This document shows positions 2,823 to 30,916 of a DNA stretch of 30,916 nucleotides, piece after piece. The translations under genes were made by a program, and so were the position numbers. The number at the start of each line of letters is the position of its first letter. Positions within the stretch are counted from its first letter, which is position 1. The notes beneath the pieces were generated by a model. It was not told the origin of the DNA. It saw only the letters and a list, made by a program, of their open reading frames with translations, and searched no databases. Origin of the DNA: a virus. Taxonomy: Duplodnaviria; Caudoviricetes. The stretch spans positions 1-30,916 of the IMG/VR virus record IMGVR_UViG_3300048507_001074; one strand, 5' to 3'.

Positions 2823-2843
2823 AATTTTATTTGGTTTTAGTTT

Positions 2844-5114
2844 TTATTTTATAAATATAAATTCGTGTGTGTTTATTAAAGTCCAGATTATTTCTTTATA
2901 TACCTCTTTCTTGTCTTTTAATGACGATTTAAATAATGATATTTCTTTTGAGGATGGATTTCTATTTAAAATATATCTAAATCCAACTTTAATTTTATCA
3001 TCTAAAGATTTTTGAGATTGCACTGCTTTAATAATTTCAAAGTTTTTATTTTTTAATAACCTTGTTTCTACAAAACCGTTAAGCAAATTGAGTACCTGGG
3101 TTGCAGAGGCGCTTTTATTTGAGTTTTCGATCTGCTCCCTATCTGAACCACCAAACTCACGAATAAGGTGCCCTACGGGAGCAGGAGAGGATAATTCAGA
3201 AGCTCTTACGGAATTACGATCTTTTACAAAGTTTTGTTTGTAATCGTCTTTCTTGGTTTGTTGCTGGGATTTAAATTTATCAACACAAGATTCGCAGCAA
3301 AATGCAACCGTCTCTCCGTTTTCATTAATAGCTAATAAAGTTGGATCAATAGCTCTGCCTGGTTTAATTGGGCAATCTGTATTTATTGGTTCTGTGAATT
3401 TTGGTTTATTTGCTGTTTTTGGCCTTTCGGTTTTATTTATTTTGGCCATAAGATCTTGAAATAATTCTTCACCAGTCATTGCCGAAAAGTTTTGAAAGTC
3501 TTCGTAGCCTTTTGTGTTTTGCTGAAGTTTTCTGGAATCTATATCGTTAAACGTTAAATTTACTAATGAATCCCAGACTTGTTCGCCACTCATTCTTTCA
3601 AGCATTGGCCCTTGATAGAAATATGGAATAGCGTTGTGAGATTGTTTTTCAGAATTTGGTCCTGCGATAATCCATTTTACATCTACAGGCATAGACTGAT
3701 CTTTATTATCTTTTGGGATAACATCTCTTATTACAGATTGACGCTGAAAAGTTTTTGTGTTATATAATACCCTTAAAAACTCTTTTAAATCGTAATCTAA
3801 AGCTACCATAACTTTTTCCAAATGTAGCTGAAGTTTTGGATCTGTAGCTAATGTATCATCAAACATGTTATCAATTGGCTCAATTAAAGCTAGTCCAAAA
3901 GCTTCTTTCCATAACCTATTTACAATAACAGCTGTAAATCTAGGATTCGAATCTGTTGCAAGCCAATTTGCATATATTTCTCGAGACCCTGCTTGAGGAG
4001 CTTTTGTTTTTATGTCGATTTCTTTTCCAAAAATTGTTTTTCCAGATAATGTTTCGCTTGGTTTTGCATTATCGTATTGATAGTCATTTGGTAAATTTAT
4101 TTTCCCTGAACCCAGACTATCTAGACCTGTTTGAAGAATGTCTTGAATGTCCCTAGATTCATTTCTTAACTGTCTAGATTTTTGCGGCTCACCTGCTTGC
4201 TCTAGCCTTCTTTGTTCTGTATTAACCAATCTATTAAATTGACCTAAATTATCAACACCTCTTCTTCTTAGATTTGTCGAACCGCTTGTGAACGCAGCCA
4301 TTTCGTAGAATTGTTTTTGTGTCCAGCGATCAAATGGATGATCATGGCATTGGGCGCATTCAAGACTAGTGCCAAGAAAGATGCGAACTGTATTGGCCAT
4401 ATTGTCGAGGGGCATGTTTACATCTCGCGCAAAGTAACTAACTCCTTCATTACCTCTTTCCCATAAAGCTCCAGATGAAGAAAGCATTTCTCTAACCCAA
4501 ACATCATATGGTCTATTATTTGATATAAATTCTTTTACATAATTTTTATATGGTATACCTGATACTCTATTATTTAATCTGTCTTTCATTCTTAGTATAT
4601 CTGCCCAGAAGTTGAACCAATGACTTACATACCCCTCGCTGCCTAATAGTTGATCTATTAATTTTGATCTTTTGTTTTTGTCTTTACTATTTAAAAAGGT
4701 GTCTACTTCCGTTAACGATGGAGTTCTCCCGATAACCTTTAAATAAGATCTGCGCAAAAATGTAGCATCATCAACTTCTTTGTTTGGTTTGAGGTTATAT
4801 GATCGTAATTTTGTTTCAATTAAACTATCAATATATCTTGCATGGGTATTTAAATCTTTATCTGATAGTGGTTTTTTAAATTTCGGCAAAGCTTCGTGGC
4901 TTGGCGGGAAGTTGTTTTTGATATAAGCTTGATTATCTTCTGTAAGAGAATCTATTGCTATTCTAAATAATTGTAGATCACTTGCTCTTTTTATTAAAGC
5001 GTGAGTTGCATTTGCCTCAAGAATATCTCCTTTTAAATCTTTTCCGTTATTAAAATAAAGAGTATCAGCGAAACAGTAAATTGATGATAAGAATAGTAAA
5101 AGTAGTTTTTTCAT
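2844..5114 (-). CDS. DUF1549 (PSCyt2)/DUF1553 (PSD1) protein with a CxxCH motif and a YHS-like Cys insert
   Basis: Sec-like signal MKKLLLLFLSSIYCFA. Motifs DDATFLRRSYL, FLGTSLECAQCHDHPFDRWTQKQFY, VIVNRLW, terminal LINTHEFIFIK. Insert CPIKPG...VAFCCESCVDKF. Confidence 0.88.
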   Translation of the reverse strand: MKKLLLLFLSSIYCFADTLYFNNGKDLKGDILEANATHALIKRASDLQLFRIAIDSLTEDNQAYIKNNFPPSHEALPKFKKPLSDKDLNTHARYIDSLIETKLRSYNLKPNKEVDDATFLRRSYLKVIGRTPSLTEVDTFLNSKDKNKRSKLIDQLLGSEGYVSHWFNFWADILRMKDRLNNRVSGIPYKNYVKEFISNNRPYDVWVREMLSSSGALWERGNEGVSYFARDVNMPLDNMANTVRIFLGTSLECAQCHDHPFDRWTQKQFYEMAAFTSGSTNLRRRGVDNLGQFNRLVNTEQRRLEQAGEPQKSRQLRNESRDIQDILQTGLDSLGSGKINLPNDYQYDNAKPSETLSGKTIFGKEIDIKTKAPQAGSREIYANWLATDSNPRFTAVIVNRLWKEAFGLALIEPIDNMFDDTLATDPKLQLHLEKVMVALDYDLKEFLRVLYNTKTFQRQSVIRDVIPKDNKDQSMPVDVKWIIAGPNSEKQSHNAIPYFYQGPMLERMSGEQVWDSLVNLTFNDIDSRKLQQNTKGYEDFQNFSAMTGEELFQDLMAKINKTERPKTANKPKFTEPINTDCPIKPGRAIDPTLLAINENGETVAFCCESCVDKFKSQQQTKKDDYKQNFVKDRNSVRASELSSPAPVGHLIREFGGSDREQIENSNKSASATQVLNLLNGFVETRLLKNKNFEIIKAVQSQKSLDDKIKVGFRYILNRNPSSKEISLFKSSLKDKKEVYKEIIWTLINTHEFIFIK

Positions 5115-5470: not shown

Positions 5471-6124
5471 TTAGAAAGAAAAGGTGAATGATGCGGAAAG
5501 TACGTCTTCTCCGTCAATTGAGTCTGAGTCTACTCGATCGTATCCAGCAGAAGCTTGAACTGAATCTGTCAAGGTTTTTGATAAAGATAATCCGAGAGAA
5601 TAATAATCATTATCTTCAATACCGTATCTATCGGAATTACCTAAAGCGCCAGCCAATGTCAAGTCTGCGAAGTTCAGGTCAAAAGTATGAGAAGCTCCAC
5701 CTTCAAATACATAATTATTATCGCTAGTATCTCTAAGAATTAAAAAATACGGGGATAAGGTATAATTAAGACTTAATTCAAGGGCTGCATCAAGTTGACT
5801 GCCTCCATCGATGATTTCTTCATGCTCAAGTCCGACATAAACGTTTAATAAGTCTCCAATTGCGCTGGAAACGCCGCCAGAGAAAATATAAACACTCTTT
5901 CCATCAGAGAGCTCGTCAAAAGATGAAACTGAGCCTTCTACGTTCAGACTTTCGACTTCTGCGCCATAAGATACTGAAGCCGAAATACTTTCTTCGGTCA
6001 AAAGCGAACCTTTACTGAATGTATCGGTGCCATAACCCAAGGAAACGGCGCCTGATCCAGCATGGACTGCGTTAATAAAAAAAGCTGCTACAAGAGCAGT
6101 AACTGTTATTAGTTTGGTTTTCAT
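5471..6124 (-). CDS. Putative outer-membrane beta-barrel (porin-like) protein
   Basis: Signal peptide ending VHA, alternating amphipathic strands rich in S/G/Y, and C-terminal LSASFTFSF with a terminal Phe (beta-signal). Confidence 0.75.
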   Translation of the reverse strand: MKTKLITVTALVAAFFINAVHAGSGAVSLGYGTDTFSKGSLLTEESISASVSYGAEVESLNVEGSVSSFDELSDGKSVYIFSGGVSSAIGDLLNVYVGLEHEEIIDGGSQLDAALELSLNYTLSPYFLILRDTSDNNYVFEGGASHTFDLNFADLTLAGALGNSDRYGIEDNDYYSLGLSLSKTLTDSVQASAGYDRVDSDSIDGEDVLSASFTFSF

Positions 6125-8714: not shown

Positions 8715-9749
8715 TTATGTGTTACACAATAAATTGTAATCATTCTCGTACATTTTTTGCACTAATTTTTTAAAATTTGTTTTTCTTTTCCATCCTAATT
8801 CTTTTTCTGCTAAAGATGGATCTCCGCACAATTTGTGAACTTCTGCTGGTCGATAAAATTTTGGGTTAACTTCAAATAGTATTTCTTTGTTTTCTGTAAG
8901 ATATTTTTCTTCTTCATTTTTACCCGATTTAACATATTTAATATTAGCGCAACTTAAAGCTTCTTCAAGAAATTCTCTTACGCTATGCATTTCACCGCTT
9001 CCAAGCACATAATTTTTTGGACGATCTTGATTAAGCATTAACCAAACCCCGTCCATGAAATCTTCTGCGTCGCTCCAGTCTCTCTTGGCTTCAATATTTC
9101 CTAAAGTAAGAGGCGTTATTTTTTGATTGTTTTCTATTTGAGTTTTTATTTTTGCAATACCATGAGTGATTTTTCTAGTAACAAAATCTAATCCGCGCCT
9201 TTTTCCTTCGTGATTGAATAACCAACCTTGTATAGCATATAAACCATAAGACTCTCTGTAGACCCTAACAATATGTCTCGCAGCACATTTCGCCGCACCA
9301 TAAGGAGATTGAGGTAACAGTGGATGAGATTCATTTTGAGGAGAGAAAACTACATCGCCAAATTCTTCACTGCTTCCAGCATTGTAAAATCTACAGTGAG
9401 GAGAGAACCTTCTAATTGATTCTAAAATATGTAGCACTGCATTAGAATCTGTTTCCCATGTTTGTATTGGATAGTTCCAGCTTCCAGCTACAAAAGACTG
9501 CGCAGCAAAGTTGATAAAAAAATCTGGTTGTAAATCAATGACTATATCACGAATACTATGTGCGTCGTTTAAATCCATGTCAATCAACTCAAATCGCGGT
9601 TCATTTTGTAAGTGCAAAATATTTTCGTGATTTTTGACGCTTAAGCGTCGTGCCGTGCCATAGATTTTATGATCTGTGTTTTGCAGAAGATAGTCTACCA
9701 TGTGACTACCGTCTTGACCTGTTACTCCTGTTACTAAAACTTTTTTCAT
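8715..9749 (-). CDS. gmd: GDP-mannose 4,6-dehydratase
   Basis: TGVTGQDGS, AAQSFV, SSEEFG, SPYGAAK (YxxxK), LFNHEG, FVTRKIT, KRDW, YRPAEV. Confidence 0.95.
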   Translation of the reverse strand: MKKVLVTGVTGQDGSHMVDYLLQNTDHKIYGTARRLSVKNHENILHLQNEPRFELIDMDLNDAHSIRDIVIDLQPDFFINFAAQSFVAGSWNYPIQTWETDSNAVLHILESIRRFSPHCRFYNAGSSEEFGDVVFSPQNESHPLLPQSPYGAAKCAARHIVRVYRESYGLYAIQGWLFNHEGKRRGLDFVTRKITHGIAKIKTQIENNQKITPLTLGNIEAKRDWSDAEDFMDGVWLMLNQDRPKNYVLGSGEMHSVREFLEEALSCANIKYVKSGKNEEEKYLTENKEILFEVNPKFYRPAEVHKLCGDPSLAEKELGWKRKTNFKKLVQKMYENDYNLLCNT

Positions 9750-18329: not shown

Positions 18330-18405
18330 TACACTTTTAGCTAAATCTACAAAAGTTAAAAGTTAACTTTGGACTTTTATTAGACTTTACTTTAACTTTT
18401 GTGTA
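18330..18405. repeat. Divergent intergenic region with eight ACTTT/AAAGT pentamers, a 12-bp inverted repeat and a 12-bp palindrome
   Basis: ACAAAAGTTAAA (18349-18360) pairs with TTTAACTTTTGT (18391-18402). AAAGTTAACTTT at 18359-18370. Outward-facing GTGTA at both ends. Confidence 0.75.
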
Positions 18406-18414
18406 TCATAAGTG

Positions 18415-20388
18415 ATGAGCAAGAGAAAATATGAAAAAAAGTCTGATTATTGGAATAAATTTAAAAAAGAAGACTTAAATGATCTAACTGAATCTTTCAG
18501 CAAAGACATTAACACTCCTGCTTCTGCAGGAGAACCATATTATATCGAATCTTCTGCTGCATACATCAGGTCTCAATCTCGATCAGACGAAAATGCTTCT
18601 CGCAGAAACTCTATACATAAATCTGATAAAAAGTTTAGATTTGCAAATATAGCGGATGGACTGTTGCCTTATAATTATTCCAAGGATGGAGTTAGTATTC
18701 GTAATGCTATAGAATTGTGCCAAAAAGCTTATGCAAATGTAGCTGTGTTTAGAAACGCTATTGATATAATGTCTGAATTTGCAAACACAAAAATATATTT
18801 AGAAGGTGGAAATCAAAAATCTAGGGAATTTATATATAAGTGGTTTGAGAAAATAAACTTATGGTCTCTAAGTGATCAATATTTTAGAGAATATTATAGA
18901 AGTGGAAACATTTTCTTATATAGAGTAGATGGACAGTTTTCTAGAGAAGACTTTGATAAGCTTAGTAAAGTCTACGGCTCAACAATTTCTCTTCAACCCG
19001 GCAAGATACCTGTTAAGTACATCATGCTTAACCCTTTTGATGTTGTCGCTCACCGAGGATCTTCTTTTGAGTCAGCTCTTTATGAAAAAATATTATCTGA
19101 GTATGACATAGAAAGACTAAGAAGTCCTAAAACAGATTATGACCTAGAAATATTTGAATCCTTGGATCAAGAAGTTCGTGATCAAATTAAAAATGGCGGT
19201 TACAATTCAGACGGTATAAAAATAAAACTTAATCCTGATAAGTTAATTTACTCTTTTTACAAAAAACAAGACTACGAACCTTTCGCTATCCCTTTTGGGT
19301 ATTCCGTACTTGATGATATAAATTTTAAACTTGAACTTAAAAAAATAGATCAAGCAATCTGCAGAACTATAGAAAATGTTATTTTATTAATAACTATGGG
19401 GGCAGAGCCAGACAAGGGAGGTATTAATCCAAGAAATATGGAGGCAATGCAGAACCTTTTTAAAAACGAAAGCGTTGGAAGGGTTTTGGTTAGCGATTTT
19501 ACAACAAAAGCTCAATTTGTTATTCCTGACATTAGTAAAGTTGTAGGTCCGTCTAAATATGAAGTGATTAACAACGACATTAAAGAGGGTCTACAAAATG
19601 TTATTGTCGGAGATGAAAGGTATAGTAATACTCAAGTTAAAACCACTATATTCCTTGAAAGATTGAAGGAATCTAGAAACGCTTTCTTAAATCAATTCTT
19701 GCAACCACAAATCAAAATGATTTGCCAAAATCTTGGTTTTAGAAAATATCCAACCGCCAAATTTGAAGAAGCAGATATCAAAGATGAGGTTCAATTACAG
19801 AGAGTTGCAACTAGGCTTATGGAACTTGGTATAATCACTCCTGAACAAGGAATGGATGTACTAGATAAGGGAGTATATCCCAAGCCCGATGAATTAGAGC
19901 CTGCTCAGAGAGAGTATATAGATAAGAGAAAGCAGGGTATGTATAACCCAATCGTCGGAGGTGTTCCAATGATAGAGGATGATCCTGGTCTGCAAAATAC
20001 ACAACCAACTAAAGAGGTAGGTAGACCCGTTGGAACTTCTGATATACCTCAAGAATCTCAATCGGAAGATTTATATAGCAGAAAAAATTTACAAGAAGCA
20101 ATTTATGAAAGCGAGAAGTTTAGGAATGAAGCTTATACTTTCATGAGAAAAAACACTTCTAAAAGTAAGCTTAATAAAACACAAAAAAATATGATTGATG
20201 AGTTGTGTCAATCTATTATGATTGCATCCGATAAAAATTTATGGATTAAAAAATTAGAAGAATGTATCGATGATTCCAATAACATTGAAAATTTGGGATG
20301 CTTGGAAGGAGTTCAAGAAATAGCGGCAAAACACGATTTAGATTTATATTCTGCTGCATTACTTTATCATAGCAGTAAGGGGGAGTAA
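18415..20388 (+). CDS. Probable phage portal protein
   Basis: About 657 aa. YANVAVFRNAIDIMSEF and YFREYYRSGNIFLY match the portal N-terminal pattern; PFAIPFG and LMELGIIT also fit. First gene of the structural strand. ATG 18415 chosen over GTG 18412. Confidence 0.72.
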   Translation: MSKRKYEKKSDYWNKFKKEDLNDLTESFSKDINTPASAGEPYYIESSAAYIRSQSRSDENASRRNSIHKSDKKFRFANIADGLLPYNYSKDGVSIRNAIELCQKAYANVAVFRNAIDIMSEFANTKIYLEGGNQKSREFIYKWFEKINLWSLSDQYFREYYRSGNIFLYRVDGQFSREDFDKLSKVYGSTISLQPGKIPVKYIMLNPFDVVAHRGSSFESALYEKILSEYDIERLRSPKTDYDLEIFESLDQEVRDQIKNGGYNSDGIKIKLNPDKLIYSFYKKQDYEPFAIPFGYSVLDDINFKLELKKIDQAICRTIENVILLITMGAEPDKGGINPRNMEAMQNLFKNESVGRVLVSDFTTKAQFVIPDISKVVGPSKYEVINNDIKEGLQNVIVGDERYSNTQVKTTIFLERLKESRNAFLNQFLQPQIKMICQNLGFRKYPTAKFEEADIKDEVQLQRVATRLMELGIITPEQGMDVLDKGVYPKPDELEPAQREYIDKRKQGMYNPIVGGVPMIEDDPGLQNTQPTKEVGRPVGTSDIPQESQSEDLYSRKNLQEAIYESEKFRNEAYTFMRKNTSKSKLNKTQKNMIDELCQSIMIASDKNLWIKKLEECIDDSNNIENLGCLEGVQEIAAKHDLDLYSAALLYHSSKGE

Positions 20389-20391
20389 GGA

Positions 20392-23064
20392 ATGGGAGCT
20401 TTCGAAACTTTCGTAAACGCTAACCTGGGCATAAGAAAGCCGCTGATTCTGGATAGCGGTCCACCTTCATTGAGTCAAAAGGCTGCAGGTATTGTTGGTT
20501 CAGAATATATTGATCTTGATGATAATTCAATATATGAAAAAACTGGTGAAAATAATAGCGTAGATTGGAAGTTCATTAGAAAGTTGGGGAGTTCGAATGA
20601 ACAATTAGTTAATATTTCAGGAGATTTTTATCAGGAATTAAATGAAATTAATCAAGAATTAATACAAGTTTCAGGATCTTTAAGGCAAGAGATATCTTCT
20701 ATTTCGGATAATGTTGTAGCATCAAAAGTAGATTTACCGACTGGCGTTGGAGATATATCATTGAAATATCATGACATTCATCATTCTTTAAATTTTAATG
20801 CAACTCCACATGTCTTTGTTAATCTCACATCAAATTCTGGATGCCCCGCTTTTTATGCATACTCCACTTATGAAGTTGATCAAAGCGGGTTTAAGGTTGC
20901 TTTTTCAGATATTATAAGGAAAGAGCATCAAGCACTAGAGCTTTTGATTATAGAATCAACTTTTGGATCTAACGCTTTACTTTCTCAGGAGATAAATTTT
21001 CCAGAAATAGGCACAGGTTATGTAAGTTCAGGAACTTATGATTTAAACGCGTCCGCCACTTCTCAACTTGATGTAAGTTATTCTTTAGATCAAACAGGCG
21101 CAGTAGAATTAAGTAATAATGCTTTAATATTAAATTATGGTGGGGAAGTGAATATTACTGCAAGTCAGACAGGCAATGAGTTGTATAATGCAGCAGGCGA
21201 TGTTACTAGGTCCCTTACTATAATTGACGATACTATTTGTGATTATGTAACTTTACATATCCAAAGCGACACAAATAATGAATCTGATCCTATTGTTGAC
21301 AGCTCACTATTAACGGGTCAAGTTTATCAAAGTGGAGACGTGGGTCATATAACTGGATCAAACTTATTCTCGACAAGTTCTATTGAATTTGATGGAGATG
21401 GAGATTGGTTATATGTAGATTCACAAGATGAATTAACCGGAGACTTTACAGCAGAAGCTTGGTTTAATATTAAAAATATTCCAGCTGCTTCAGGATTCAA
21501 TTTATCATCTGATACATCAGAATCTCTTTTAGAAGATGATGTTCTTGAGATTACTGGAGATATGACTTTAAGTTATGTTAATGATAGAGTATCTTCTATT
21601 GGTAGTAATACAATTACATTAACAAATTTAAGCGGCATTAACTTTGAAGAAGATCAAAGACTATTGTTAATTTCAACTTATGGGCCATCCGGTTCGACCG
21701 TAGGTAACTATGAGTTTGTAGAGACTTCAACTATTAATCAAAACACGATAACGCTAAAATCAAACATACAAAAAGATTATGATGTTGATAATTATACATT
21801 TATTGTTGCTCCAAAAAGATATAATAAAATTATTGTTGAAGAGAATGTGAACGTTTCTTCTGAAGCCTGGTCTGATTCTAGTAGCTCTATTCAAGGTTTG
21901 GTATTGTTATCTGCTAATGAAATAGTTGTTAAAGGTAATCTATCCGCAAATTCACTTGGATTTAGAGGAGGTAATATCGGAAATGCATCAAGTCCAAGCG
22001 GAGGCAGGGGAGAGAGTTATGTTCCTGGAGTTTGGAATGTAAAATCTACGTCTCAAGCATATGGTGCTGGCGGCGGAGGTAAATATACTTCTTCAAGCGG
22101 CACTGACACAGGAAGTTCTGGAGCGGGAGGCGGACATGGATCTGCTGGTACTAATGGTTCTGGAGGCACTGCAAAAGCAGGTGAAGCTTTTGCTTCTATC
22201 AATAACACTATTAAGGAAAAAGTTTTTATGGGTCCTGGAGGCGGACAAGGAGCTTCTGATAATGCAAGTCCATTCGACAATTCTTCATCTAGAGGAGGTT
22301 ACGGAGGACGTGGAGGTGGAATTGTAATTATTGATTCAATTAATTGCCAAGTAACTGCTTCTGCATCTATAAAAGCTAATGGGCAGCAAGGGTTTGAAGC
22401 TTATGACCCAGGTGATGCTGAGCCAGGTAATGGAGGAGGCGGAGCTGGAGGTTCTATATTATTTATGGGCAATTTAAATAATGAAGGTTTAATTGAAACA
22501 AAATATGGAGATCGAAGAAAAGCAGACGGTAGCGGTCAAAGCTCTGGCTATGGATATACATCTGGTTACGGAGGTAATGGAGTTATTGCTTGGTTTGGGT
22601 ATCAGGTTGGTAATAAGCCTAGTTATTGCCTTGATCATTACTTATGGAAAAATTCATCCTTTATCTTGAGTGGAGGTTCGACTACTCAGACATCAACAGG
22701 AGGTAGCTCAATAGCCATCAACGCAGTATCAAAAAATTCTTCAGAGTATCAAATTACATATGGAAGTATCGGTAATAATGTGTTGGTTGATAGTAGCTTA
22801 AGTTTTAACAACTGGTATCATATAGCTATGGTTAGAAAAAATGGAGCTGAAACATTGTATTTAAATGGTTCATCGGTAAGTACTAGACAAAATTCTGTAA
22901 CTTACCAGAATGACGCTTATTCTATAGGTGGTCAAGCTTTGAATAATTTCGTGTCACCTTTACCTATGAAGGGTAATCTACAAGATCTTCGCATAACACA
23001 AAAAGCTTTATATCATAATAATTTTACAACTCCAACTTCTTTATTGAAAATATGTAATAATTAA
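20392..23064 (+). CDS. Virion/tail-associated protein with an Ig-like module, a Gly-rich domain and an interrupted LamG (ConA-like) domain
   Basis: SIEFDGDGDWL...GDFTAEAW, then much later WYHIAMVR...LYLNG...GNLQDLRIT. GGGG-rich region in between. QEINF...ITASQTGNELYNAA Ig-like module. Confidence 0.75.
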   Translation: MGAFETFVNANLGIRKPLILDSGPPSLSQKAAGIVGSEYIDLDDNSIYEKTGENNSVDWKFIRKLGSSNEQLVNISGDFYQELNEINQELIQVSGSLRQEISSISDNVVASKVDLPTGVGDISLKYHDIHHSLNFNATPHVFVNLTSNSGCPAFYAYSTYEVDQSGFKVAFSDIIRKEHQALELLIIESTFGSNALLSQEINFPEIGTGYVSSGTYDLNASATSQLDVSYSLDQTGAVELSNNALILNYGGEVNITASQTGNELYNAAGDVTRSLTIIDDTICDYVTLHIQSDTNNESDPIVDSSLLTGQVYQSGDVGHITGSNLFSTSSIEFDGDGDWLYVDSQDELTGDFTAEAWFNIKNIPAASGFNLSSDTSESLLEDDVLEITGDMTLSYVNDRVSSIGSNTITLTNLSGINFEEDQRLLLISTYGPSGSTVGNYEFVETSTINQNTITLKSNIQKDYDVDNYTFIVAPKRYNKIIVEENVNVSSEAWSDSSSSIQGLVLLSANEIVVKGNLSANSLGFRGGNIGNASSPSGGRGESYVPGVWNVKSTSQAYGAGGGGKYTSSSGTDTGSSGAGGGHGSAGTNGSGGTAKAGEAFASINNTIKEKVFMGPGGGQGASDNASPFDNSSSRGGYGGRGGGIVIIDSINCQVTASASIKANGQQGFEAYDPGDAEPGNGGGGAGGSILFMGNLNNEGLIETKYGDRRKADGSGQSSGYGYTSGYGGNGVIAWFGYQVGNKPSYCLDHYLWKNSSFILSGGSTTQTSTGGSSIAINAVSKNSSEYQITYGSIGNNVLVDSSLSFNNWYHIAMVRKNGAETLYLNGSSVSTRQNSVTYQNDAYSIGGQALNNFVSPLPMKGNLQDLRITQKALYHNNFTTPTSLLKICNN

Positions 23065-23091
23065 ATTAAGTTTAATTTAACTTAGTTTTTT
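23065..23091 (+). terminator. Possible weak AT-rich terminator
   Basis: ATTAAGTT-taattt-AACTTAGT followed by a T run directly after the stop codon; low predicted stability. Confidence 0.3.
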
Positions 23092-23117
23092 GTTTGATAG
23101 ATCGTGTAAATAACGAC

Positions 23118-24188
23118 ATGAATATTGTTTTAACTGCAAGTTTTGATAAAGGAATTTTTTGTAATGGTTTACAGCAGAATATCGTTTTCTTAGCCGAAAT
23201 GCTTCAGGATATGGGGTATGATCCTGTTATATGTATAAATCATGAAAAATCTAAATGTATTGACGCGCCAAATAATTTATTGATTATAGATGAAAATGAT
23301 CTTGTAAATTTGGAAAATGTAGATTATTTATTGCAAACAGGTTGGGTAGTAGGTAATAAAGTTATTGATCACTTAAAAATCAAGAATAAGGGTATGCAAA
23401 ATGTGCATGTTCATTATGGGAATAGAATGCTTGCGGATGTTGAGCAAGCAAGTTGGGACACTATATCTGTTGGTAACTATAGTATAGATCAAGTTTGGAT
23501 TTCTCCTCATTATGAGATTTCGCTAAATTACTTTAAAACGTTTTATCATACAGAAAAGGTATTTGTCTTGCCTTATATCTGGAGCCCTAAATATATACAA
23601 GTTCACGAAATGATCTGGAATAAAGCAGGATTTTCTTGCAAATATAATCCTCGAGATCCCAAGAATATAGCTATCGTTGAGCCGAATTTAAATATGACCA
23701 AAAGCTGCGTTCCTGCTATTATGCTTGTTGAAGAATATTACAATAGTTATCCACAAGTATTTGATAAAATGACAGTTTATTGTTCTAGTAATCTTAGCGG
23801 CAAAAAATACTTTAGATCATTAATGTGGGGCTTGAATTTAATTAAAGATCAAAAAGTTTCTTTTGATGGTAGGCAAAAAATTAGCAAGATATTTTCTCAA
23901 GAATCAAATGTTGTAGTATCTCATCAACTTTTAAATGCATTGAATTATACATATCTAGAGGCTTTATATTTTAATATTCCGTTGGTTCATAATTCAGAAT
24001 ATATCAAAGAAGCGGGTTATTACTACCCAGATTACGATACTAAAACTGGCGCAAAAGCTTTAAATGGTGCTTTATCTTTTCACGACTCCAATCTTGAAAA
24101 CTACCAAAAAATTGCAAAAAGAATTATAGATAGGTATTCTCCTAATAACGAACAAGTTAGAAAAAAGTACAAAGACTTATTTGAGTGA
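23118..24188 (+). CDS. DUF2827 family protein (putative GT-B glycosyltransferase), paralog 1
   Basis: NGLQQNIVFL, PYIWSP, EPNLN, VSHQLLNALNYTYLEALYFNIPLVHNS...GYYYP. ATG 23118 follows GTGTA-N9. Confidence 0.75.
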   Translation: MNIVLTASFDKGIFCNGLQQNIVFLAEMLQDMGYDPVICINHEKSKCIDAPNNLLIIDENDLVNLENVDYLLQTGWVVGNKVIDHLKIKNKGMQNVHVHYGNRMLADVEQASWDTISVGNYSIDQVWISPHYEISLNYFKTFYHTEKVFVLPYIWSPKYIQVHEMIWNKAGFSCKYNPRDPKNIAIVEPNLNMTKSCVPAIMLVEEYYNSYPQVFDKMTVYCSSNLSGKKYFRSLMWGLNLIKDQKVSFDGRQKISKIFSQESNVVVSHQLLNALNYTYLEALYFNIPLVHNSEYIKEAGYYYPDYDTKTGAKALNGALSFHDSNLENYQKIAKRIIDRYSPNNEQVRKKYKDLFE

Positions 24189-25276
24189 AAATAGGAATTA
24201 CTATAGATTTATCTTTAGCTTTTTGGGCTAATGGAGTTCAGCAAAATATAGTATTTCTGAGCCATTTATTTTCTTCAGTACCTGATAATGAGTGTTGCTA
24301 TATCAGCGAATCAAGACTGTCAGATTCGATAGAAAGCGAAACTGAATATGTTAGTCCAGAGCAAATCAAGGAATCAAATATTAAGTTTGACGTAATTATT
24401 GTCGCAGGTTTAGGTTTAGATGATGAAATTTATGATCATTTGATTAAGATTAATCCTGATATTAAAATTGTATTGATACACTGCTTTAATAAGCTTATGG
24501 ACGATATAGCCTTTAATGTTGCATACCCAGATACAAATCAATCTCCTGCTCAAACACCTAAGTATTTATCTGAAATATGGGTTCTACCTCATCATGAATT
24601 TTCGATTGAATATATAAAATCATACTATAATTTCGATAAAATTAAACAAGTGCCTTACTTATGGAGTCCGTTTTTTGTTAATCAAAAATTACATGAAATG
24701 AAGCAAAAGGGTGTTAGCCCATTATTTAAAAAAGGTTGGGAAAATAAGGTATGCATTTTTGAGCCTAATTTTTCTCACATAAAGAATTGCCTAGTTCCTT
24801 TAATGATCTGCGAAAAATTTCAAAATACTTTTGGCGACGATCTTTTTTCTTTGAATGTTTTTTGTTGTGAAAAATTAAGGAACAATAACTTTTTTAAAAA
24901 ATTCGTGGCGCGTTTAAATATAATCAATAAAAGAGAAAACTTTTGTTTTTTTAATAATAGATGGTCTACTCTTGCTGGATTAGCTAGATGGGGAAGCACA
25001 GTGGTGAGTCATCAAATGTATAACTCCTTGAATTATGCTCATTTAGAAACATTGTATTTAGGTCTTCCACTAATACATAATTCAGAGCCATTAATGGATC
25101 TTGGGTATTATTATCCAGATTTTGATATAGATATGGGCGCGAAGCAATTGAAAAGCGCTATTATAAATCATGATTCATGTATAGATAGTTATACTAAAGA
25201 TGCAAAAGATTTTATAAAAAAATTCGACCCAAATTCAGGCTCTAATATTAAAGAATATATGGATCTGTTAAAGTAA
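24185..25276 (+). CDS. DUF2827 family protein (putative GT-B glycosyltransferase), paralog 2
   Basis: MKIGIT...WANGVQQNIVFL, PYLWSP, FEPN, VSHQMYNSLNYAHLETLYLGLPLIHNS...GYYYP. GTGA overlap with paralog 1. Confidence 0.75.
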   Translation: MKIGITIDLSLAFWANGVQQNIVFLSHLFSSVPDNECCYISESRLSDSIESETEYVSPEQIKESNIKFDVIIVAGLGLDDEIYDHLIKINPDIKIVLIHCFNKLMDDIAFNVAYPDTNQSPAQTPKYLSEIWVLPHHEFSIEYIKSYYNFDKIKQVPYLWSPFFVNQKLHEMKQKGVSPLFKKGWENKVCIFEPNFSHIKNCLVPLMICEKFQNTFGDDLFSLNVFCCEKLRNNNFFKKFVARLNIINKRENFCFFNNRWSTLAGLARWGSTVVSHQMYNSLNYAHLETLYLGLPLIHNSEPLMDLGYYYPDFDIDMGAKQLKSAIINHDSCIDSYTKDAKDFIKKFDPNSGSNIKEYMDLLK

Positions 25277-26409
25277 TGAGGTTGAAGAACATAGACGGAT
25301 GTTTTTTTATTAATCTTGATAAAAGAGTTGACAGGCTTCAACATATAAATAATACCTTACCTTTTGATTCCGAGAGAGTATCTGCCGTAAACGCTTCTAC
25401 ATTGCAGTTAACTGATGAGATTAAAAAATTATTTTCTAATAATTATTATAAATTTGCTAAAGCAGAAATTAGTTGCACCTTGAGTCATTATTACTTGTGG
25501 AAAAAATTAATTGATGATGAATCCGCGCAAAACTATTTAATACTAGAAGATGACGTTTGTTTTAAGAATGAGTTCGTGAAATTCTGGAATGGAAGGTATG
25601 CAGATAATATTCCTGCTGATTTTGATCTTATATATCTTGGCGGTTGTCAGCCATATAATAAACCTCATTATAAAAATGTTACCGAATCATATAATTTATA
25701 TTTTAATAGAATTAAAAATAATGACTATTTTTCAGAGAATAATCATTTTTGGCATATGACAACATGTTCTTATATTATCAGCAAGGAGGCCGCGAAAAAA
25801 GCTTGCGAATGGATTGGTGAGCATGGATTTAATTCGGTAATAGATCATTTTATGATTAATTTTTTTAATCACAATCCTTACTATGGTAATCCTGATAATT
25901 TTTATCATATCAATCCTTTGATGGCAAATCAAATTCATGAAGAGAATGACAATACAGAATTAGATCAAAATTCAGATATAAGATACGCGCCCGAGAAATT
26001 TAAAAAAGAAGACACACATAATAAAAAGGTAATTTTTTTAGACAATAATCTTAAAGAGGCGAATTTTATTAAAGATTTATTTGGTTTAGAAGATTATGAA
26101 TATATAACAGATAATTCTCTAACCAAAGTTTATAATAATAGTATTATTGTTTATAGTGATTTTCTGTCTAAAGATTTAAGCATATACCCTGATAAGTATA
26201 TTCCTGCGTTTAATAAACTTAGAGATAATCGGATTGAATATTTTAAAAAGGCCGCGAATAAAAATTGCATATTGATTCATCTAGCAGATATTGATTGTGT
26301 TGCGGATATATCCCATTATAAATATTTCAAAAATGTGTTTAGACAATTTTACAGAGAGGACTGTGATCATGATTGTGTAAGTTATATACCGCTTGGTTAT
26401 AAAGAATAA
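25276..26409 (+). CDS. Glycosyltransferase family 25 with an extra C-terminal segment
   Basis: FINLDKRVDR, EISCTLSHYYLW, LILEDD, DLIYLG, SYIISKEAAKK. Confidence 0.85.
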   Translation: MRLKNIDGCFFINLDKRVDRLQHINNTLPFDSERVSAVNASTLQLTDEIKKLFSNNYYKFAKAEISCTLSHYYLWKKLIDDESAQNYLILEDDVCFKNEFVKFWNGRYADNIPADFDLIYLGGCQPYNKPHYKNVTESYNLYFNRIKNNDYFSENNHFWHMTTCSYIISKEAAKKACEWIGEHGFNSVIDHFMINFFNHNPYYGNPDNFYHINPLMANQIHEENDNTELDQNSDIRYAPEKFKKEDTHNKKVIFLDNNLKEANFIKDLFGLEDYEYITDNSLTKVYNNSIIVYSDFLSKDLSIYPDKYIPAFNKLRDNRIEYFKKAANKNCILIHLADIDCVADISHYKYFKNVFRQFYREDCDHDCVSYIPLGYKE

Positions 26410-26410
26410 T

Positions 26411-27001
26411 ATGATAAATCATAATAAAAAGTATATTTTTATACATATTCCAAAAACAGGAGGAAGTTCTATAGAAAAAGCGTTGTTATCTAATGAAGGA
26501 GTTGATATGTCTTCTGTGGGTAAAACTATTTTCTCTAATTTATCAAAAGATATTTTAGATGAATATGTTTTGGGTAAAAATAGACAACACCTTGAGATGC
26601 ATGAGTTTGACGATGAATTTCAAAAAAATTATTTTTCTTTTTGTTTTGTAAGAAATCCTTGGGATTGGATTGTTAGTGAATTCGAGTGGATGCGCGATGT
26701 TTACAATGATTTTGACGAGTATATTTACAGAATAAAAAACGGATCCGTTATGGTTTATAAGTACCACTTGAATCCGCAAATATCTTTCATCAATAAAAAC
26801 ATAAAATTTATCGGAAGGTTTGAAAATTTTAAAGACGATTTTTTAAAAGTATGCAAAACCATAGGCATACCAGATCTAGAGCTTCCTCATATATATAAGA
26901 ATACAAGAATGGATTACAGGTCTTACTATAATGCTGAGACTAAAAAAATTATAGAAAATATATATTTAAAAGATATACTTGAATTTGGTTATAAATTTTA
27001 A
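26411..27001 (+). CDS. Sulfotransferase (Sulfotransfer_2, carbohydrate sulfotransferase-like)
   Basis: PAPS-binding motifs FIHIPKTGGSSI and FVRNPWDWIVS, FIGRFENFKDDF, terminal DILEFGYKF. Start at ATG 26411. Confidence 0.88.
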   Translation: MINHNKKYIFIHIPKTGGSSIEKALLSNEGVDMSSVGKTIFSNLSKDILDEYVLGKNRQHLEMHEFDDEFQKNYFSFCFVRNPWDWIVSEFEWMRDVYNDFDEYIYRIKNGSVMVYKYHLNPQISFINKNIKFIGRFENFKDDFLKVCKTIGIPDLELPHIYKNTRMDYRSYYNAETKKIIENIYLKDILEFGYKF

Positions 27002-27002
27002 A

Positions 27003-28292
27003 ATGAAAGATTTTATTGAATCTAGAAAATGGGTGTGGGGATTTTTCTCTAATATTAATGATAGACCTAATGCTGAACAAATTTTAAGTCAATTAACTTC
27101 TTTTGATTTTGATTATTTTATTGATGAAGATTTTTGCTTAAAGAGTGTTTATGATAGATCTACTATTTTGAAGCAATGCTCGTTTGTGATTTGTCCTGCA
27201 AGTAAAAGAAGTTTAGAGGTTTCGGAATTTTATTTAGCGTTAGATAATGGTTGTATCCCGATAGTTGAAAGCTCTGATTATTGGGTGAATGTTTTTGGTG
27301 AAAATCCTATATTACAAATTAATGAAGATTGGTCGGGTTTAGGGTCTAGTATTCAAACATTGATTGACGATGTTGACTCTATGAGTAAATATAGAAAGAG
27401 GTTGTTTGATTGGTGGTTGACTTATAAAAAATCTATAGTCGATGAGGCAAGTTCTTTAATCGCGGCTAATCAAGATAATAATTCTGATATATATGCAAGC
27501 GAAGATAATAAATTAAGTTTAAAACGCGCAGAGTTTTTTAAGATAAAAAATAAATGGCCCGAGTTTTTGAGTTATGATTTTTTGAATTTTGCCGCGAAAC
27601 AATCAGGTGCTAGGTCAGTAGAAGCAGATAGTTTTTCATGTTATAATCCAGGAGCAAATATTGCAATTGTTACATTGTACACAAATGAAATCGCGGAATA
27701 TTCAATAGAGTCAGAATATAGCATTAGAAGATATTGTGAGAGGAATAATTATACGTTTTACGTTTATAGAGATTCTTTGGATAAAGATAGTAACCCTAAT
27801 TGGTCTAAGCCAAAGGCTATATTAAATCATATCAAAAATCATGATTTTATTGTTTGGATTGATTCTGATACTTTAATATTTAATCCAAGTAAAAAATTAG
27901 AAGATATACTTGATCCATGTTCTTCGACAAAACAAATCTTTGCATGTGAAGATATTGGATCTAATAATAAAAAATTACCAAAAGGATCTTTATTTAATTC
28001 TGGGGTGGTTATATTCAAAAATCATGACTACACATATAACATATTAAAAAAATGGTGGGACTTTAGGCATGAAGGTGATACGTCGTCTTTATATTCTAGT
28101 GGCGGTGATCAAGAAATACTAATAAGTATTATTAAAAAATCTGATCCTTTTTTGCATAATTTAAAAATATTTCCTATGAACAAATTTAATACAGAACCGC
28201 GAATGGTTGATGATCAAACATTTATAATACATTTTATGGCGTATCCTTATTTATTAAAATGTTTATTCATGAAATACTGGAACGCTAATTAA
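27003..28292 (+). CDS. Fusion of a degenerate exostosin/GT47-like segment and a GT34-like glycosyltransferase
   Basis: N-part SFVICP...FYLALDNGCIPIV. C-part YCERNNY, WSKPKAI, VWIDSD (DxD), FNSGV, DQ, FIIHF. Start at ATG 27003. Confidence 0.75.
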   Translation: MKDFIESRKWVWGFFSNINDRPNAEQILSQLTSFDFDYFIDEDFCLKSVYDRSTILKQCSFVICPASKRSLEVSEFYLALDNGCIPIVESSDYWVNVFGENPILQINEDWSGLGSSIQTLIDDVDSMSKYRKRLFDWWLTYKKSIVDEASSLIAANQDNNSDIYASEDNKLSLKRAEFFKIKNKWPEFLSYDFLNFAAKQSGARSVEADSFSCYNPGANIAIVTLYTNEIAEYSIESEYSIRRYCERNNYTFYVYRDSLDKDSNPNWSKPKAILNHIKNHDFIVWIDSDTLIFNPSKKLEDILDPCSSTKQIFACEDIGSNNKKLPKGSLFNSGVVIFKNHDYTYNILKKWWDFRHEGDTSSLYSSGGDQEILISIIKKSDPFLHNLKIFPMNKFNTEPRMVDDQTFIIHFMAYPYLLKCLFMKYWNAN

Positions 28293-28346
28293 TTTTAAAC
28301 CAAGCTAAAAGATTCTAAAAAGGGTATTTTACCTGTATATATAAGT

Positions 28347-30413
28347 ATGAGTAAAATATTTCGTACGGAAAAGCTGTCGCTCAATGGGGGCAATATCCTC
28401 TTGACGTCAGATAGCAATAACAATTTTGCTTTCAAAAGTGCGGATGGACAGAATGTTATCATTAGTAATTCTACTATTAGTGGTGATATATCAAGTTTAG
28501 CCGCAAAAGATATTTCCATAGATACAGATATATCTAGTTTAGCTGTTAAAGACAGCTCTCTTAATACTGATGTTTCTAGTTTAAATGCAAAAGATAATTT
28601 ATTAGATGTAGACATTTCCAGTCTTGCAGCTAAAGATTCCGATCTTGATTCGGATATCTCTAGCTTGGTAGCTAAAGACGGAAACGTTGATACAGAAATC
28701 TCTAGTCTTGCTGCTAAGGATTCTGGTTTAGACACAGATGTTTCTAGTCTTCAAGCTCAGCGCGTAAGCGATGAGTCTACGAAAGACACAGAAGTTTCTA
28801 GCCTCGCTGCTAAGGATTCTGGTTTGGATACAGATGTTTCTAGTCTTCAAGCTCAGCGCGTAAGCGATGAATCCACAAAAAACACAGAAGTTTCTAGCCT
28901 CGCTGCTAAGGATTCTGATCTTGATTCCGACATTTCTAGCTTGGTAGCTAAAGACGGAAATATGGATACAGAGATCTCTAGCCTTGCTGCTAAGGATTCA
29001 GGCTTAGACACAGACGTTTCTAGTCTTCAAGCTCAACGCGTAAGCGATGTGTCTACAAAAGACACAGAAGTTTCTAGCCTCGCTGCTAAAGATTCTGGTT
29101 TGGATACAGACATTTCTAGTCTTCAAGCTCAGCGCGTAAGCGATGAATCCACAAAAAACACAGAAGTTTCTAGCCTCGCCGCTAAGGATTCTAATCTTGA
29201 TTCCGACATCTCTAGCTTGGTAGCTAAAGACGGAAACATGGATACAGAAATCTCTAGTCTTGCTGCTAAGGATTCTGGTTTAGACACAGACGTTTCTAGT
29301 CTTCAAGCTCAACGCGTAAGCGATGTGTCTACAAAAGACACAGAAGTTTCTAGCCTCGCTGCTAAGGATTCTGGTTTAGACACAGATGTTTCTAGTCTCG
29401 CTGCTGCGGACGGAGTTATTAACACTTCAATTTCTAGCCTTGAAACCTCAAAAGACGCAGACGTTTCTAGCCTCGCTGCTAAAGATTCTGATATTGATGC
29501 TGACATCTCTAGCTTGGTAGCTAAAGACGGAAACGTCGACACAGAAATCTCTAGCTTGGCAGCTAAAGACTCCTCTCTTGATACAGATGTTTCAAGTCTT
29601 TCAGTAATCTTGAATACTAATAATATTTTTTCAAGTTCAAAAGAACTAACTATTAATACCAGAAGTATTGAGGTAGATTGGAGTGATACTTATCAACCTT
29701 CTACAGTTCCTTCTGTTGTAGGTATGATTAGAAGTTCAAATGCTGGAGATCCTATTATCGCAGCGAACCTTAGTGGTACAGCAACTACTGGCTCGGCAAC
29801 ATTTGTGTTTTCCGGTCCGATTTCAAGCAACTATTATAAGCTTGATGTTATGGCTGTAAATCCTGATGAATCTTTTACAACTGTTGTGACTGACGAAATT
29901 CAGGAATCTAATATTTCAAGCTTAGCTTCTATAAATAGCGATATCGCTACAGACGTCAGCTCTCTAGATACAAACGTTTCTAGTTTATCTGTGGTCACTT
30001 CTACAGTTCAAACTTCTAATTCAACTGATGTTTCTAGTCTTGCAGCTAAGGACACTAGCTTGGATACAGACATCTCAAGTTTAGCCGCAGCTTCAACCGG
30101 TTCGATTGGTTCGACTGACGTTTCTAGTCTTGCAGCTAAGGACACTAGCTTGGATACAGACATCTCAAGTTTAGCCGCAGCTTCAACCGGTTCGGTTGGT
30201 TCGACTGACGTTTCTAGTCTTGCAGCTAAGGATACTAGTTTGGATACAGATATCTCAAGTTTATCTTATGCAATGATTCAGTGGGATTCTTCTGTTCCAA
30301 CAGGCGTTAATAGCGCTGGATCAGCTGGAGATATAGTTTATGATTCTAATTACATGTATGTATGTGTAAGTGCTAATACATGGAAAAGAATGGTCTTGGG
30401 AGAATGGAGTTAA
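28347..30413 (+). CDS. Ser/Asp-rich repetitive coiled-coil fibre protein
   Basis: Dozens of [DE][VI]SSL-based 14- and 18-aa repeats. C-terminal GSAGDIVYDSNYMYVCVSANTWKR resembles a motif common in phage fibres. Confidence 0.8.
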   Translation: MSKIFRTEKLSLNGGNILLTSDSNNNFAFKSADGQNVIISNSTISGDISSLAAKDISIDTDISSLAVKDSSLNTDVSSLNAKDNLLDVDISSLAAKDSDLDSDISSLVAKDGNVDTEISSLAAKDSGLDTDVSSLQAQRVSDESTKDTEVSSLAAKDSGLDTDVSSLQAQRVSDESTKNTEVSSLAAKDSDLDSDISSLVAKDGNMDTEISSLAAKDSGLDTDVSSLQAQRVSDVSTKDTEVSSLAAKDSGLDTDISSLQAQRVSDESTKNTEVSSLAAKDSNLDSDISSLVAKDGNMDTEISSLAAKDSGLDTDVSSLQAQRVSDVSTKDTEVSSLAAKDSGLDTDVSSLAAADGVINTSISSLETSKDADVSSLAAKDSDIDADISSLVAKDGNVDTEISSLAAKDSSLDTDVSSLSVILNTNNIFSSSKELTINTRSIEVDWSDTYQPSTVPSVVGMIRSSNAGDPIIAANLSGTATTGSATFVFSGPISSNYYKLDVMAVNPDESFTTVVTDEIQESNISSLASINSDIATDVSSLDTNVSSLSVVTSTVQTSNSTDVSSLAAKDTSLDTDISSLAAASTGSIGSTDVSSLAAKDTSLDTDISSLAAASTGSVGSTDVSSLAAKDTSLDTDISSLSYAMIQWDSSVPTGVNSAGSAGDIVYDSNYMYVCVSANTWKRMVLGEWS
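28480..29600 (+). repeat. Nested coding repeat: 42- and 54-bp units organised into a 276-bp higher-order unit
   Basis: Marker ttggtagctaaagacggaaa recurs at 28665, 28941, 29217 (276-bp period) and 29514. Confidence 0.9.
30021..30263 (+). repeat. 90-bp coding tandem repeat (about 2.7 copies)
   Basis: STDVSSLAAKDTSLDTDISSLAAASTGS[IV]G units begin at 30021, 30111 and 30201. Confidence 0.92.
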
Positions 30414-30432: not shown

Positions 30433-30916
30433 ATGAATAATTTATATTTAATAAAAAGCGGCGACAATGGTTTTGTCGAAGAAACTTCAGCGGTAATTAG
30501 CGCTGAAGGTGGAGATATCAGTATTAATAGTAGTTTGCATGTTGATTCTGCGGGTAATATAGGTATAGGTTCCTCTAATCCGACTAATAAACTTGATGTC
30601 GTTGGTTCTGCTAGTATTTCGAATGATTTAACTGTTGATAATATAATTTTATCTAGCGTTGGAGGACAACTCCCAGCTAATGCGAATGATATCATAGTAT
30701 ACAATGGAACGAACTGGGTTGTTGGTGCTGCCAGTCAACTTCCTGGCGGCGGAGGAGGAGCTGGTAATTCGGATGTTCCTGCTGGCTTGATTAATACATT
30801 AACTGAAGGAGAATCAATTCACGAAGTTAATTTTGGATTTGATAGTAATAACGATCGAATTGTATATGATAATGTTCCTAAAATTGCAGCTAGTTTAGAA
30901 ATTGATGGTCCTGGAG
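30433..30916 (+). CDS. Partial (3'-truncated) tail-fibre-like protein
   Basis: Not in the ORF track; open to the window end. MNNLYLIKSG...VDSAGNIGIGSSNPTNKLDVVG (GNVGIGT-type fibre repeat)...IIVYNGTNW... Confidence 0.8.
   Translation, partial: MNNLYLIKSGDNGFVEETSAVISAEGGDISINSSLHVDSAGNIGIGSSNPTNKLDVVGSASISNDLTVDNIILSSVGGQLPANANDIIVYNGTNWVVGAASQLPGGGGGAGNSDVPAGLINTLTEGESIHEVNFGFDSNNDRIVYDNVPKIAASLEIDGPG

Follow-up and report, generated by a model that had tools for sequence, protein, structure and literature searches.

A Candidate Virion Glycosylation Cassette Pairs DUF2827 Proteins with a Serine-Rich Coiled-Coil Fibre in a Large Tailed Phage

Results

Organization of the Cassette

We examined a 30,916-nucleotide stretch of DNA from a tailed phage (Duplodnaviria; Caudoviricetes; IMG/VR record IMGVR_UViG_3300048507_001074, positions 1 to 30,916), hereafter the window, in which five genes for glycan-modifying enzymes lie directly before the gene for a serine-rich fibre, all on the plus strand. 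The first two genes encode paralogous DUF2827 proteins, A (23118..24188) and B (24185..25276). The third open reading frame (ORF) joins an intact GT25 glycosyltransferase (GT) domain (25276..26010) to the N-terminal half of a split GT47/GT114 enzyme resembling A075L (26020..26409). The fourth, a sulfotransferase gene (26411..27001), separates this half from its partner, and the fifth carries the decayed C-terminal half (27003..27482) followed by an intact GT34 domain (27650..28292). The 688-aa fibre comes next (28347..30413). The spacing of the five cassette genes is -4, -1, +1, and +1 nt, and 54 nt separate the last of them from the fibre. The original prediction had described a tight five-gene run before a Ser-rich fibre, and these gaps, together with 37 Ser-Ser-Leu (SSL) motifs in the fibre, bear that description out.

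Both DUF2827 proteins match the Pfam family (PF10933) over its full length, with E-values of 1e-67 and 2e-65 (229 and 221 bits; cut-off 25). The GT25 match (E 2e-22) is confined to residues 9-181 and the GT34 match (E 9e-12) to the C-terminal part of its ORF. The sulfotransferase belongs to Sulfotransfer_2 (PF03567, E 5e-14) and contains both motifs of the 3'-phosphoadenosine-5'-phosphosulfate (PAPS)-binding type, scored with patterns that we take to be those of the family. No membrane segment was found in the five cassette enzymes, the maximal 19-residue hydropathy being 1.22.

The DUF2827 Proteins

Paralogs A and B share 30% identity and form separate orthologous subfamilies that occur in fixed order, B, the faster-evolving, downstream of A. 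A structure model was made for paralog A alone. It comprises 356 aa in two Rossmann domains, with a predicted local distance difference test (pLDDT) score of 95, and its best matches are BshA (E 9e-11, Z 24.0) and the PglH-type structure 6eji (Z 23.4), ahead of the T4 DNA alpha-glucosyltransferase AGT (Z 20.0), SdgB (19.2), GtfA (18.9), and BGT (16.0). As modelled, the GT4-like GT-B fold of paralog A is settled, in keeping with the GT-B fold anticipated for the family, and the DUF2827 proteins are predicted to be retaining glycosyltransferases. The donor-site Glu is invariant in both subfamilies (E281 in A, 109/109; E288 in B, 73/73), and the Arg that precedes it is present in 109/109 A sequences (R252) and 67/73 B sequences. 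The motif E-x7-E, which we take to be the donor motif of GT4-like retaining enzymes, reads N273-x7-E281 in paralog A, with Asn in the first position and the second Glu invariant.

Literature naming DUF2827 is sparse and reports no activity for any member; the family had no match in 50,697 GenBank phages and none among the sequences of solved structures. Silence in the literature would fit DUF2827 proteins that are helpers of fibre assembly with a GT fold but no transfer activity, the serines of the fibre then being structural. The invariant donor-site residues in both paralogs, and the fusion of DUF2827 to GT2, GT25, and methyltransferase-like domains in some relatives, argue against this, and we regard it as very improbable.

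The fold is silent on the acceptor, because AGT matches it as well as GtfA and SdgB do. The matches to AGT and BGT are what would be expected of enzymes that hypermodify phage DNA, as these T4 enzymes do. However, a thymidylate-synthase-family (hydroxymethylase) gene was found in none of 5 complete genomes of the clade, against 10 of 14 controls, and the genes sit among structural rather than replication genes. A search for TET/JBP gave no match in these genomes, and none in the controls either. Given also the bacterial context of the family, described next, modification of phage DNA seems extremely improbable.

In bacteria, DUF2827 genes are reported beside trimeric adhesins and proposed to encode glycosyltransferases (bioRxiv 10.64898/2026.01.22.700529, available text). 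In the one case that we checked, a Burkholderia ambifaria plasmid, a YadA gene with 36 SLST repeats is followed by a DUF2827 pair, which bears out the association with Burkholderia SLST adhesins. Glycosylation of such adhesin repeats is a matter of speculation in the accessible part of PMC7142374. In Prochlorococcus, a DUF2827 gene (L164:1-9633) follows the gene of a Ser/Thr-rich repeat protein as part of a type I secretion-like cluster.

The original prediction also likened the mechanism of the DUF2827 pair to that of GtfA/GtfB, an analogy that found no support. GtfA/GtfB are defined by DUF1975 and by a division into catalytic and chaperone subunits (PMC6973325, available text). Pfam gave no DUF1975 hit in the window DUF2827 proteins (a 356-aa two-domain model as against 506 aa for GtfA), both paralogs keep the donor Glu, and 3 of 42 cassettes have a single copy; judged by its motifs, the pair is therefore not a member of the GtfA/GtfB family. 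At the level of the whole locus, and by analogy, the DUF2827 system may work like serine-rich-repeat systems, with a fixed primer and variable extenders.

The SSL Fibre

Of the 37 SSL motifs in the fibre, 35 read [IV]SSL, whereas the remaining ORFs of the window hold 8 SSL in 9,348 residues. The spacing between motifs is 14 (21 times), 18 (6 times), 7 (5 times), 16 (twice), or 11 (once), a heptad/hendecad pattern. The protein divides into an N-terminal anchor (residues 1-46), an SSL coiled-coil stalk (47-423), a tip domain (425-505), a second SSL stalk, and a 46-aa C-terminal module. The first stalk is proline-free, contains 22% Ser, and carries a net charge of -48 over 377 aa. The tip domain, of 80 residues, is predicted to be of the H-type-lectin/gp53-like type. 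In a model of a 137-aa relative (L155) this domain has pLDDT above 90; the top matches are the tips of pyocins and phage fibres, along with H-type lectins, at weak E-values (0.01 in PDB, 1e-4 in BFVD). The fibre is putatively trimeric and located on the virion.

The repeat units of the relatives' fibres differ (SSLAAKD, SLTTRLS, SLDTRV), but all share Ser-Leu. In 39 stalks, Leu is preceded by Ser in 450 of 748 cases, versus 154 expected; in control coiled coils the count is 207 of 3248, versus 257 expected.

The beta-sandwich of the fibre tip (window 29619-29861; L038, L004, L188) recurs as a graft on many structural proteins of the clade that are otherwise unrelated, including a neck-like gene, long fibres, and the gene upstream of the cassette. 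Most relatives (L025, L029, and others) have, next after the fibre, the gene of a conserved, charged protein of 205-230 aa that may contain a J-domain-like motif, and it keeps this place even where the fibre has moved. This gene is not behind the fibre of the window; its product is possibly a fibre chaperone.

Co-occurrence of DUF2827 and the Fibre

We collected 203 DUF2827 loci, grouped them into 101 clusters at 95%, and dropped 41 that ended before the end of the cassette. The automatic repeat detector missed L056, L057, and L060, whose repeats were found by eye. Locus searches with single proteins returned one locus for DUF2827 and none for the low-complexity fibre, and alignments were used instead. 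Among the 42 dereplicated loci that reach a fibre gene, 31 end at a member of the SSL family and 11 at a long tail fibre; the predicted co-occurrence of DUF2827 with Ser-rich fibres is thus present within this phage clade. In the other 18 clusters an opposite-strand gene is met first. Sixteen of these are giant-virus, distant phage, or bacterial loci; the remaining two are L049 and L048, in which an SSL fibre lies inverted just beyond the opposite-strand gene. The most diverged members of the clade (L057, L058, L060, L226; 4/42) are minimal units, with DUF2827 directly before the fibre and no intervening gene; L057 and L058 have a single DUF2827 gene each.

The window follows the gene order of the long-fibre loci, yet an SSL fibre sits behind its cassette. 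In both long-fibre contigs that were checked the SSL fibre lies 17-18 kb off, and in L091, where another fibre likewise follows the cassette, SSL repeats are found in the gene immediately upstream. A second contig of like depth shares the start of the gene, which suggests another fibre paralog elsewhere in the window's phage. The window fibre was matched in 22 of 41 DUF2827 records and in 3 of 4 near-complete ones; the near-complete miss, G042, carries the diverged fibre of L058. Two complete genomes were chosen by their portal alone: DUF2827 and the fibre occur together in G053, and both are missing from G059. The clade is estimated to comprise about 1,700 stretches with a portal gene. The portal-type search gave 35 records, 26 of them without DUF2827, of which 25 are fragments, and a second portal search yielded no further complete DUF2827-negative genome. 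DUF2827 was absent from all four loci found from the fibre (L176, L177, L182, L183), but these records, 9-56% complete and two of them cut inside the cassette, are too fragmentary to be informative.

The 11 of 42 cassettes that end at a long tail fibre raise the possibility that the enzymes glycosylate the capsid, the tail tube, the long tail fibres, or a range of Ser-rich virion proteins, the SSL fibre being just one neighbour in a structural module. Repeats of the SSL or LSG kind are present in further structural genes, as in G016 and in L091 (1160-5749), where the homolog of the virion gene upstream of the cassette has grown to 1,529 aa, holds 81 SSL repeats, and directly precedes the DUF2827 pair. 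Precedents exist in the capsid and tail-tube glycans of mycobacteriophages (cited in PMC12619734, available text) and the capsid glycans of chloroviruses. The most diverged relatives keep just DUF2827 and the fibre, G059 lacks both together, and SLST adhesins offer a parallel; on these grounds we judge this alternative unlikely.

A Variable Array with a Split, Decayed Enzyme

Pfam was run on 78 of 111 dereplicated cassette proteins. The domains of the array are shuffled among relatives and comprise GT25, GT32, GT2, GT8, GT34, WbsX, pyruvyltransferase, sulfotransferase, and several methyltransferases, often in polyproteins of 700-1,260 aa. GT34 is found in 37 of the 42 cassettes, GT25 in 30, the split enzyme in 18, and the sulfotransferase in 7, and 4 have none; the sulfotransferase count comes from our own profile, and L056 has another type. 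With such an array, much as with a capsule serotype locus, every phage lineage would have a fibre glycan of its own.

GT25, GT8, WbsX, and pyruvyltransferase are typical of lipopolysaccharide (LPS) and capsule loci, and GT islands beside tail fibres, as in pelagimyophages, are read as host modification in the accessible text of PMC7029224 and also PMC12801897. DUF2827 and the array could then remodel host LPS or capsule and block superinfection. Against this stand the lack of membrane segments in the five enzymes and their position in a late structural operon. A GtrA flippase was found in none of the 5 complete genomes, while 8 of 14 controls were positive, and bacterial DUF2827 genes track adhesins rather than LPS loci. 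We consider remodelling of the host surface quite unlikely.

One enzyme is divided between two ORFs, its N-terminal half forming the final 120 residues behind GT25 and its C-terminal half the first 155 residues ahead of GT34. All 42 cassettes have both halves or neither; in L153 the halves are contiguous, and L004 has an intact counterpart. The C-terminal half of the window gave no Pfam hit by itself and was found with a profile of relatives, whose C-terminal halves match PF24785/PF03016 in Pfam as well as A075L (E 3e-6) and EXT1. In A075L, Arg208 and Glu211 bind the phosphate and ribose (PMC11571054, available text), and Glu349 of EXT1 is the corresponding residue (PMC9178029, available text). 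Counted along the alignment to A075L, the equivalents of Arg208 and Glu211 are kept in 31/31 and 30/31 relatives; both are replaced in the window. Conserved columns are lost at 17 of 35 positions in the C-terminal half, compared with 4 of 73 in GT25 and 2 of 33 in GT34, where the DxD is present; the N-terminal half has lost the Glu of its conserved HLxDE. Loss of the donor-binding Arg and Glu and of 17 of 35 conserved columns indicates, at the level of sequence, that in this phage the split module has probably lost its catalytic activity. The gene had been called GT47-like; the homology holds, but what lies there is the C-terminal half of a split enzyme and does not look active. The window's allele of the split enzyme recurs in a contig of another study, with 1 difference in 305, and a second allele differs at 34 of 305. 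Among the 40 of 106 listed differences that were used, 12 of 16 fall in third codon positions in the sulfotransferase and 10 of 24 in the split halves (p 0.054), a hint of a codon-position bias.

The sulfated fibre glycan that had been proposed fared less well than the gene behind it. The sulfotransferase is present, but only 7 of 42 cassettes have such a gene, and 4 of 5 complete genomes carry one elsewhere than in the cassette; we therefore take sulfation to be an optional addition, and its link to the fibre is the weakest step. G059 contains about 40 kb of GT, sulfotransferase, methyltransferase, and nucleotide-sugar genes without DUF2827 or the SSL fibre. The same genome (complete, 194 kb; L302-L305, L307) has mucin-like Thr/Ser tracts on several structural proteins and possibly represents a second virion glycosylation chemistry.

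The Fibre as Acceptor

In the mechanism that we favour, the DUF2827 pair would act in the infected cell's cytoplasm and attach the first sugar to SSL serines of the neighbouring fibre, GT25 and GT34, whose domains are intact, would then extend the glycan, and the sulfotransferase may decorate it. Gene context alone names the fibre as the acceptor. We favour it because of the GT4-like model, the invariant donor Glu, the 31 of 42 loci that end at the fibre, the minimal units, the joint absence in G059, the Ser-Leu enrichment, the lack of membrane segments in the enzymes, and the Burkholderia parallel. The nearest solved relative of the split module, A075L, builds a virion glycan, which provides a precedent. 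Priming of fibre serines by DUF2827 appears probable to us, if by a modest measure. Extension of the same glycan by GT25 and GT34 is a possibility to which we give slightly less than even weight, and a sulfated fibre glycan is doubtful. A broader proposal for the whole marine clade, in which DUF2827 is a new family of protein O-glycosyltransferases that reads the Ser-Leu heptad, the GTs form a swappable assembly line around the split enzyme, a dead linker in this phage, and the products are sulfated, methylated, or pyruvylated glycans peculiar to each lineage, is more doubtful still.

Several observations weigh against the fibre as acceptor. Another fibre takes the place next to the cassette in 11 of 42 loci, several of the closest relatives among them, and L049 has no fibre at its cassette. 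Only 2 of 11 giant-virus DUF2827 loci have a repeat gene, and G042 and G053 carry extra DUF2827 copies remote from any fibre. The L155 fibre holds one repeat only, the repeat counts are non-independent events, and the DUF2827-negative control is a single genome, G059. Synteny of neighbours within a structural module can be inherited without function. The comparable Z-scores of AGT, GtfA, and SdgB leave the acceptor unreadable from the fold, and the glycan on the fibre is itself a prediction from sequence. Finally, in view of the G059 island and further GT clusters in G016, the extension genes may serve another glycan.

Genomic Setting

The window is part of a large tailed phage with genes for ribonucleotide reductase, RecA, DnaB, primase, GDP-mannose dehydratase, DUF1501, and DUF1549/1553. 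The dehydratase, assigned by Pfam to GDP-mannose 4,6-dehydratase (8715..9749, minus strand), is a possible donor supply. Upstream of the cassette, on the plus strand, lie a probable portal gene (18415..20388), whose cluster matches Portal_Mu/Phage_portal and whose homolog has a terminase homolog immediately before it in 46 of 79 loci, and the gene of an 890-aa virion-type protein (20392..23064) with a conserved N-terminus, a small beta-sandwich (106-187), and an optional LamG extension (Pfam LamG, E 2e-11). This extension (window 20657-23097) is a swappable module, with 344 letters in its place in another sample; the LamG part is missing from locus L001, which is 99% identical. Behind the fibre begins a long tail-fibre gene (30433..30916, plus strand), of an S74-type family in relatives, which directly follows the cassette in 11 of 42 of them.

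A complete 184 kb relative, G016, of which we scanned 99 of the 115 ORFs sized 170-1500 aa, encodes lambda-like minor tail proteins L and M together with a tape-measure-like protein of 2,202 aa. It also encodes (L313, L316) an adenosine-5'-phosphosulfate (APS) kinase-like gene, a SET-domain protein, ClpB, and DNA polymerase III alpha. Positions 1-392 of the window hold the tail end of a Pro-Glu repeat protein, whose counterpart in G016, a subtilase, combines a PEPK tract with a membrane segment at the C-terminus. A gene for a small porin-like outer-membrane protein with a signal peptide (5471-6124, minus strand) adjoins Hsp20. DUF1501 and DUF1549/DUF1553 are typical of Planctomycetes and Verrucomicrobia; here the pair is phage-borne (1539-5114, minus strand), and G016 has it too. 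One cassette was found on a contig binned with Coraliomargarita, which makes a Verrucomicrobiota host of the phage clade a lead.

The cassette is not an assembly artefact, since a public contig, possibly from the source sample, is identical to the window over 18400-28685 and the contig set of another study has the same cassette at about 98%. At least half of the cassette's sequence words are present in 15 seawater runs. A small share of RNA run X18 matched, mostly fibre pieces, giving no evidence of expression, and scans of the window for promoters and terminators were at chance level.

Discussion

The cassette is real and conserved. Judged by its genes, it appears to be a new version of virion glycosylation encoded by a virus, one in which an uncharacterised family would do the priming. 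If this is true, DUF2827 would gain a function in phages and in bacterial adhesin loci, the heptad coiled coil would be a new kind of O-glycosylation acceptor, and the view that GT islands of marine phages modify the host would have a testable alternative. The smallest natural unit is one enzyme and one fibre, which makes a test cheap.

The closest known systems are the bacterial DUF2827 arrays (bioRxiv 10.64898/2026.01.22.700529, available text), which share the Pfam family (about 26-29% identity), the tandem arrangement, and a Ser-rich coiled-coil neighbour. Here, however, the system is in a phage, the repeats are acidic rather than neutral SLST, and extension enzymes and sulfo-, methyl-, and pyruvyltransferases stand between the pair and the fibre. 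GtfA/GtfB (PMC6973325, available text) are likewise cytoplasmic, with a fixed GT-B pair and variable downstream GTs encoded next to a Ser-rich surface protein, whereas the phage system has no DUF1975, no catalytic/chaperone split by motif, and no SecA2/Y2, and its putative substrate is a heptad coiled coil. Pelagimyophage islands (PMC7029224) resemble the cassette as a hypervariable GT-rich region beside marine tail fibres; that paper reads them as acting on host O-antigen, its accessible text names no DUF2827 or Ser-rich acceptor, and the tail here is lambda-like. We found no literature report of a sulfated glycan on a phage virion. In mycobacteriophages (Freeman 2023, as cited in PMC12619734, available text), phage GTs modify virion proteins, but these are the capsid and tail tube and not a repeat fibre. 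PBCV-1 (A075L, PMC11571054; A111/114R, PMC7826918; available text of both) encodes soluble multi-domain GT polyproteins, and the split module of the window is a relative of its A075L. There the products are N-glycans on the capsid protein of a eukaryotic virus, whereas the A075L-like enzyme of this phage is decayed and spread over two ORFs.

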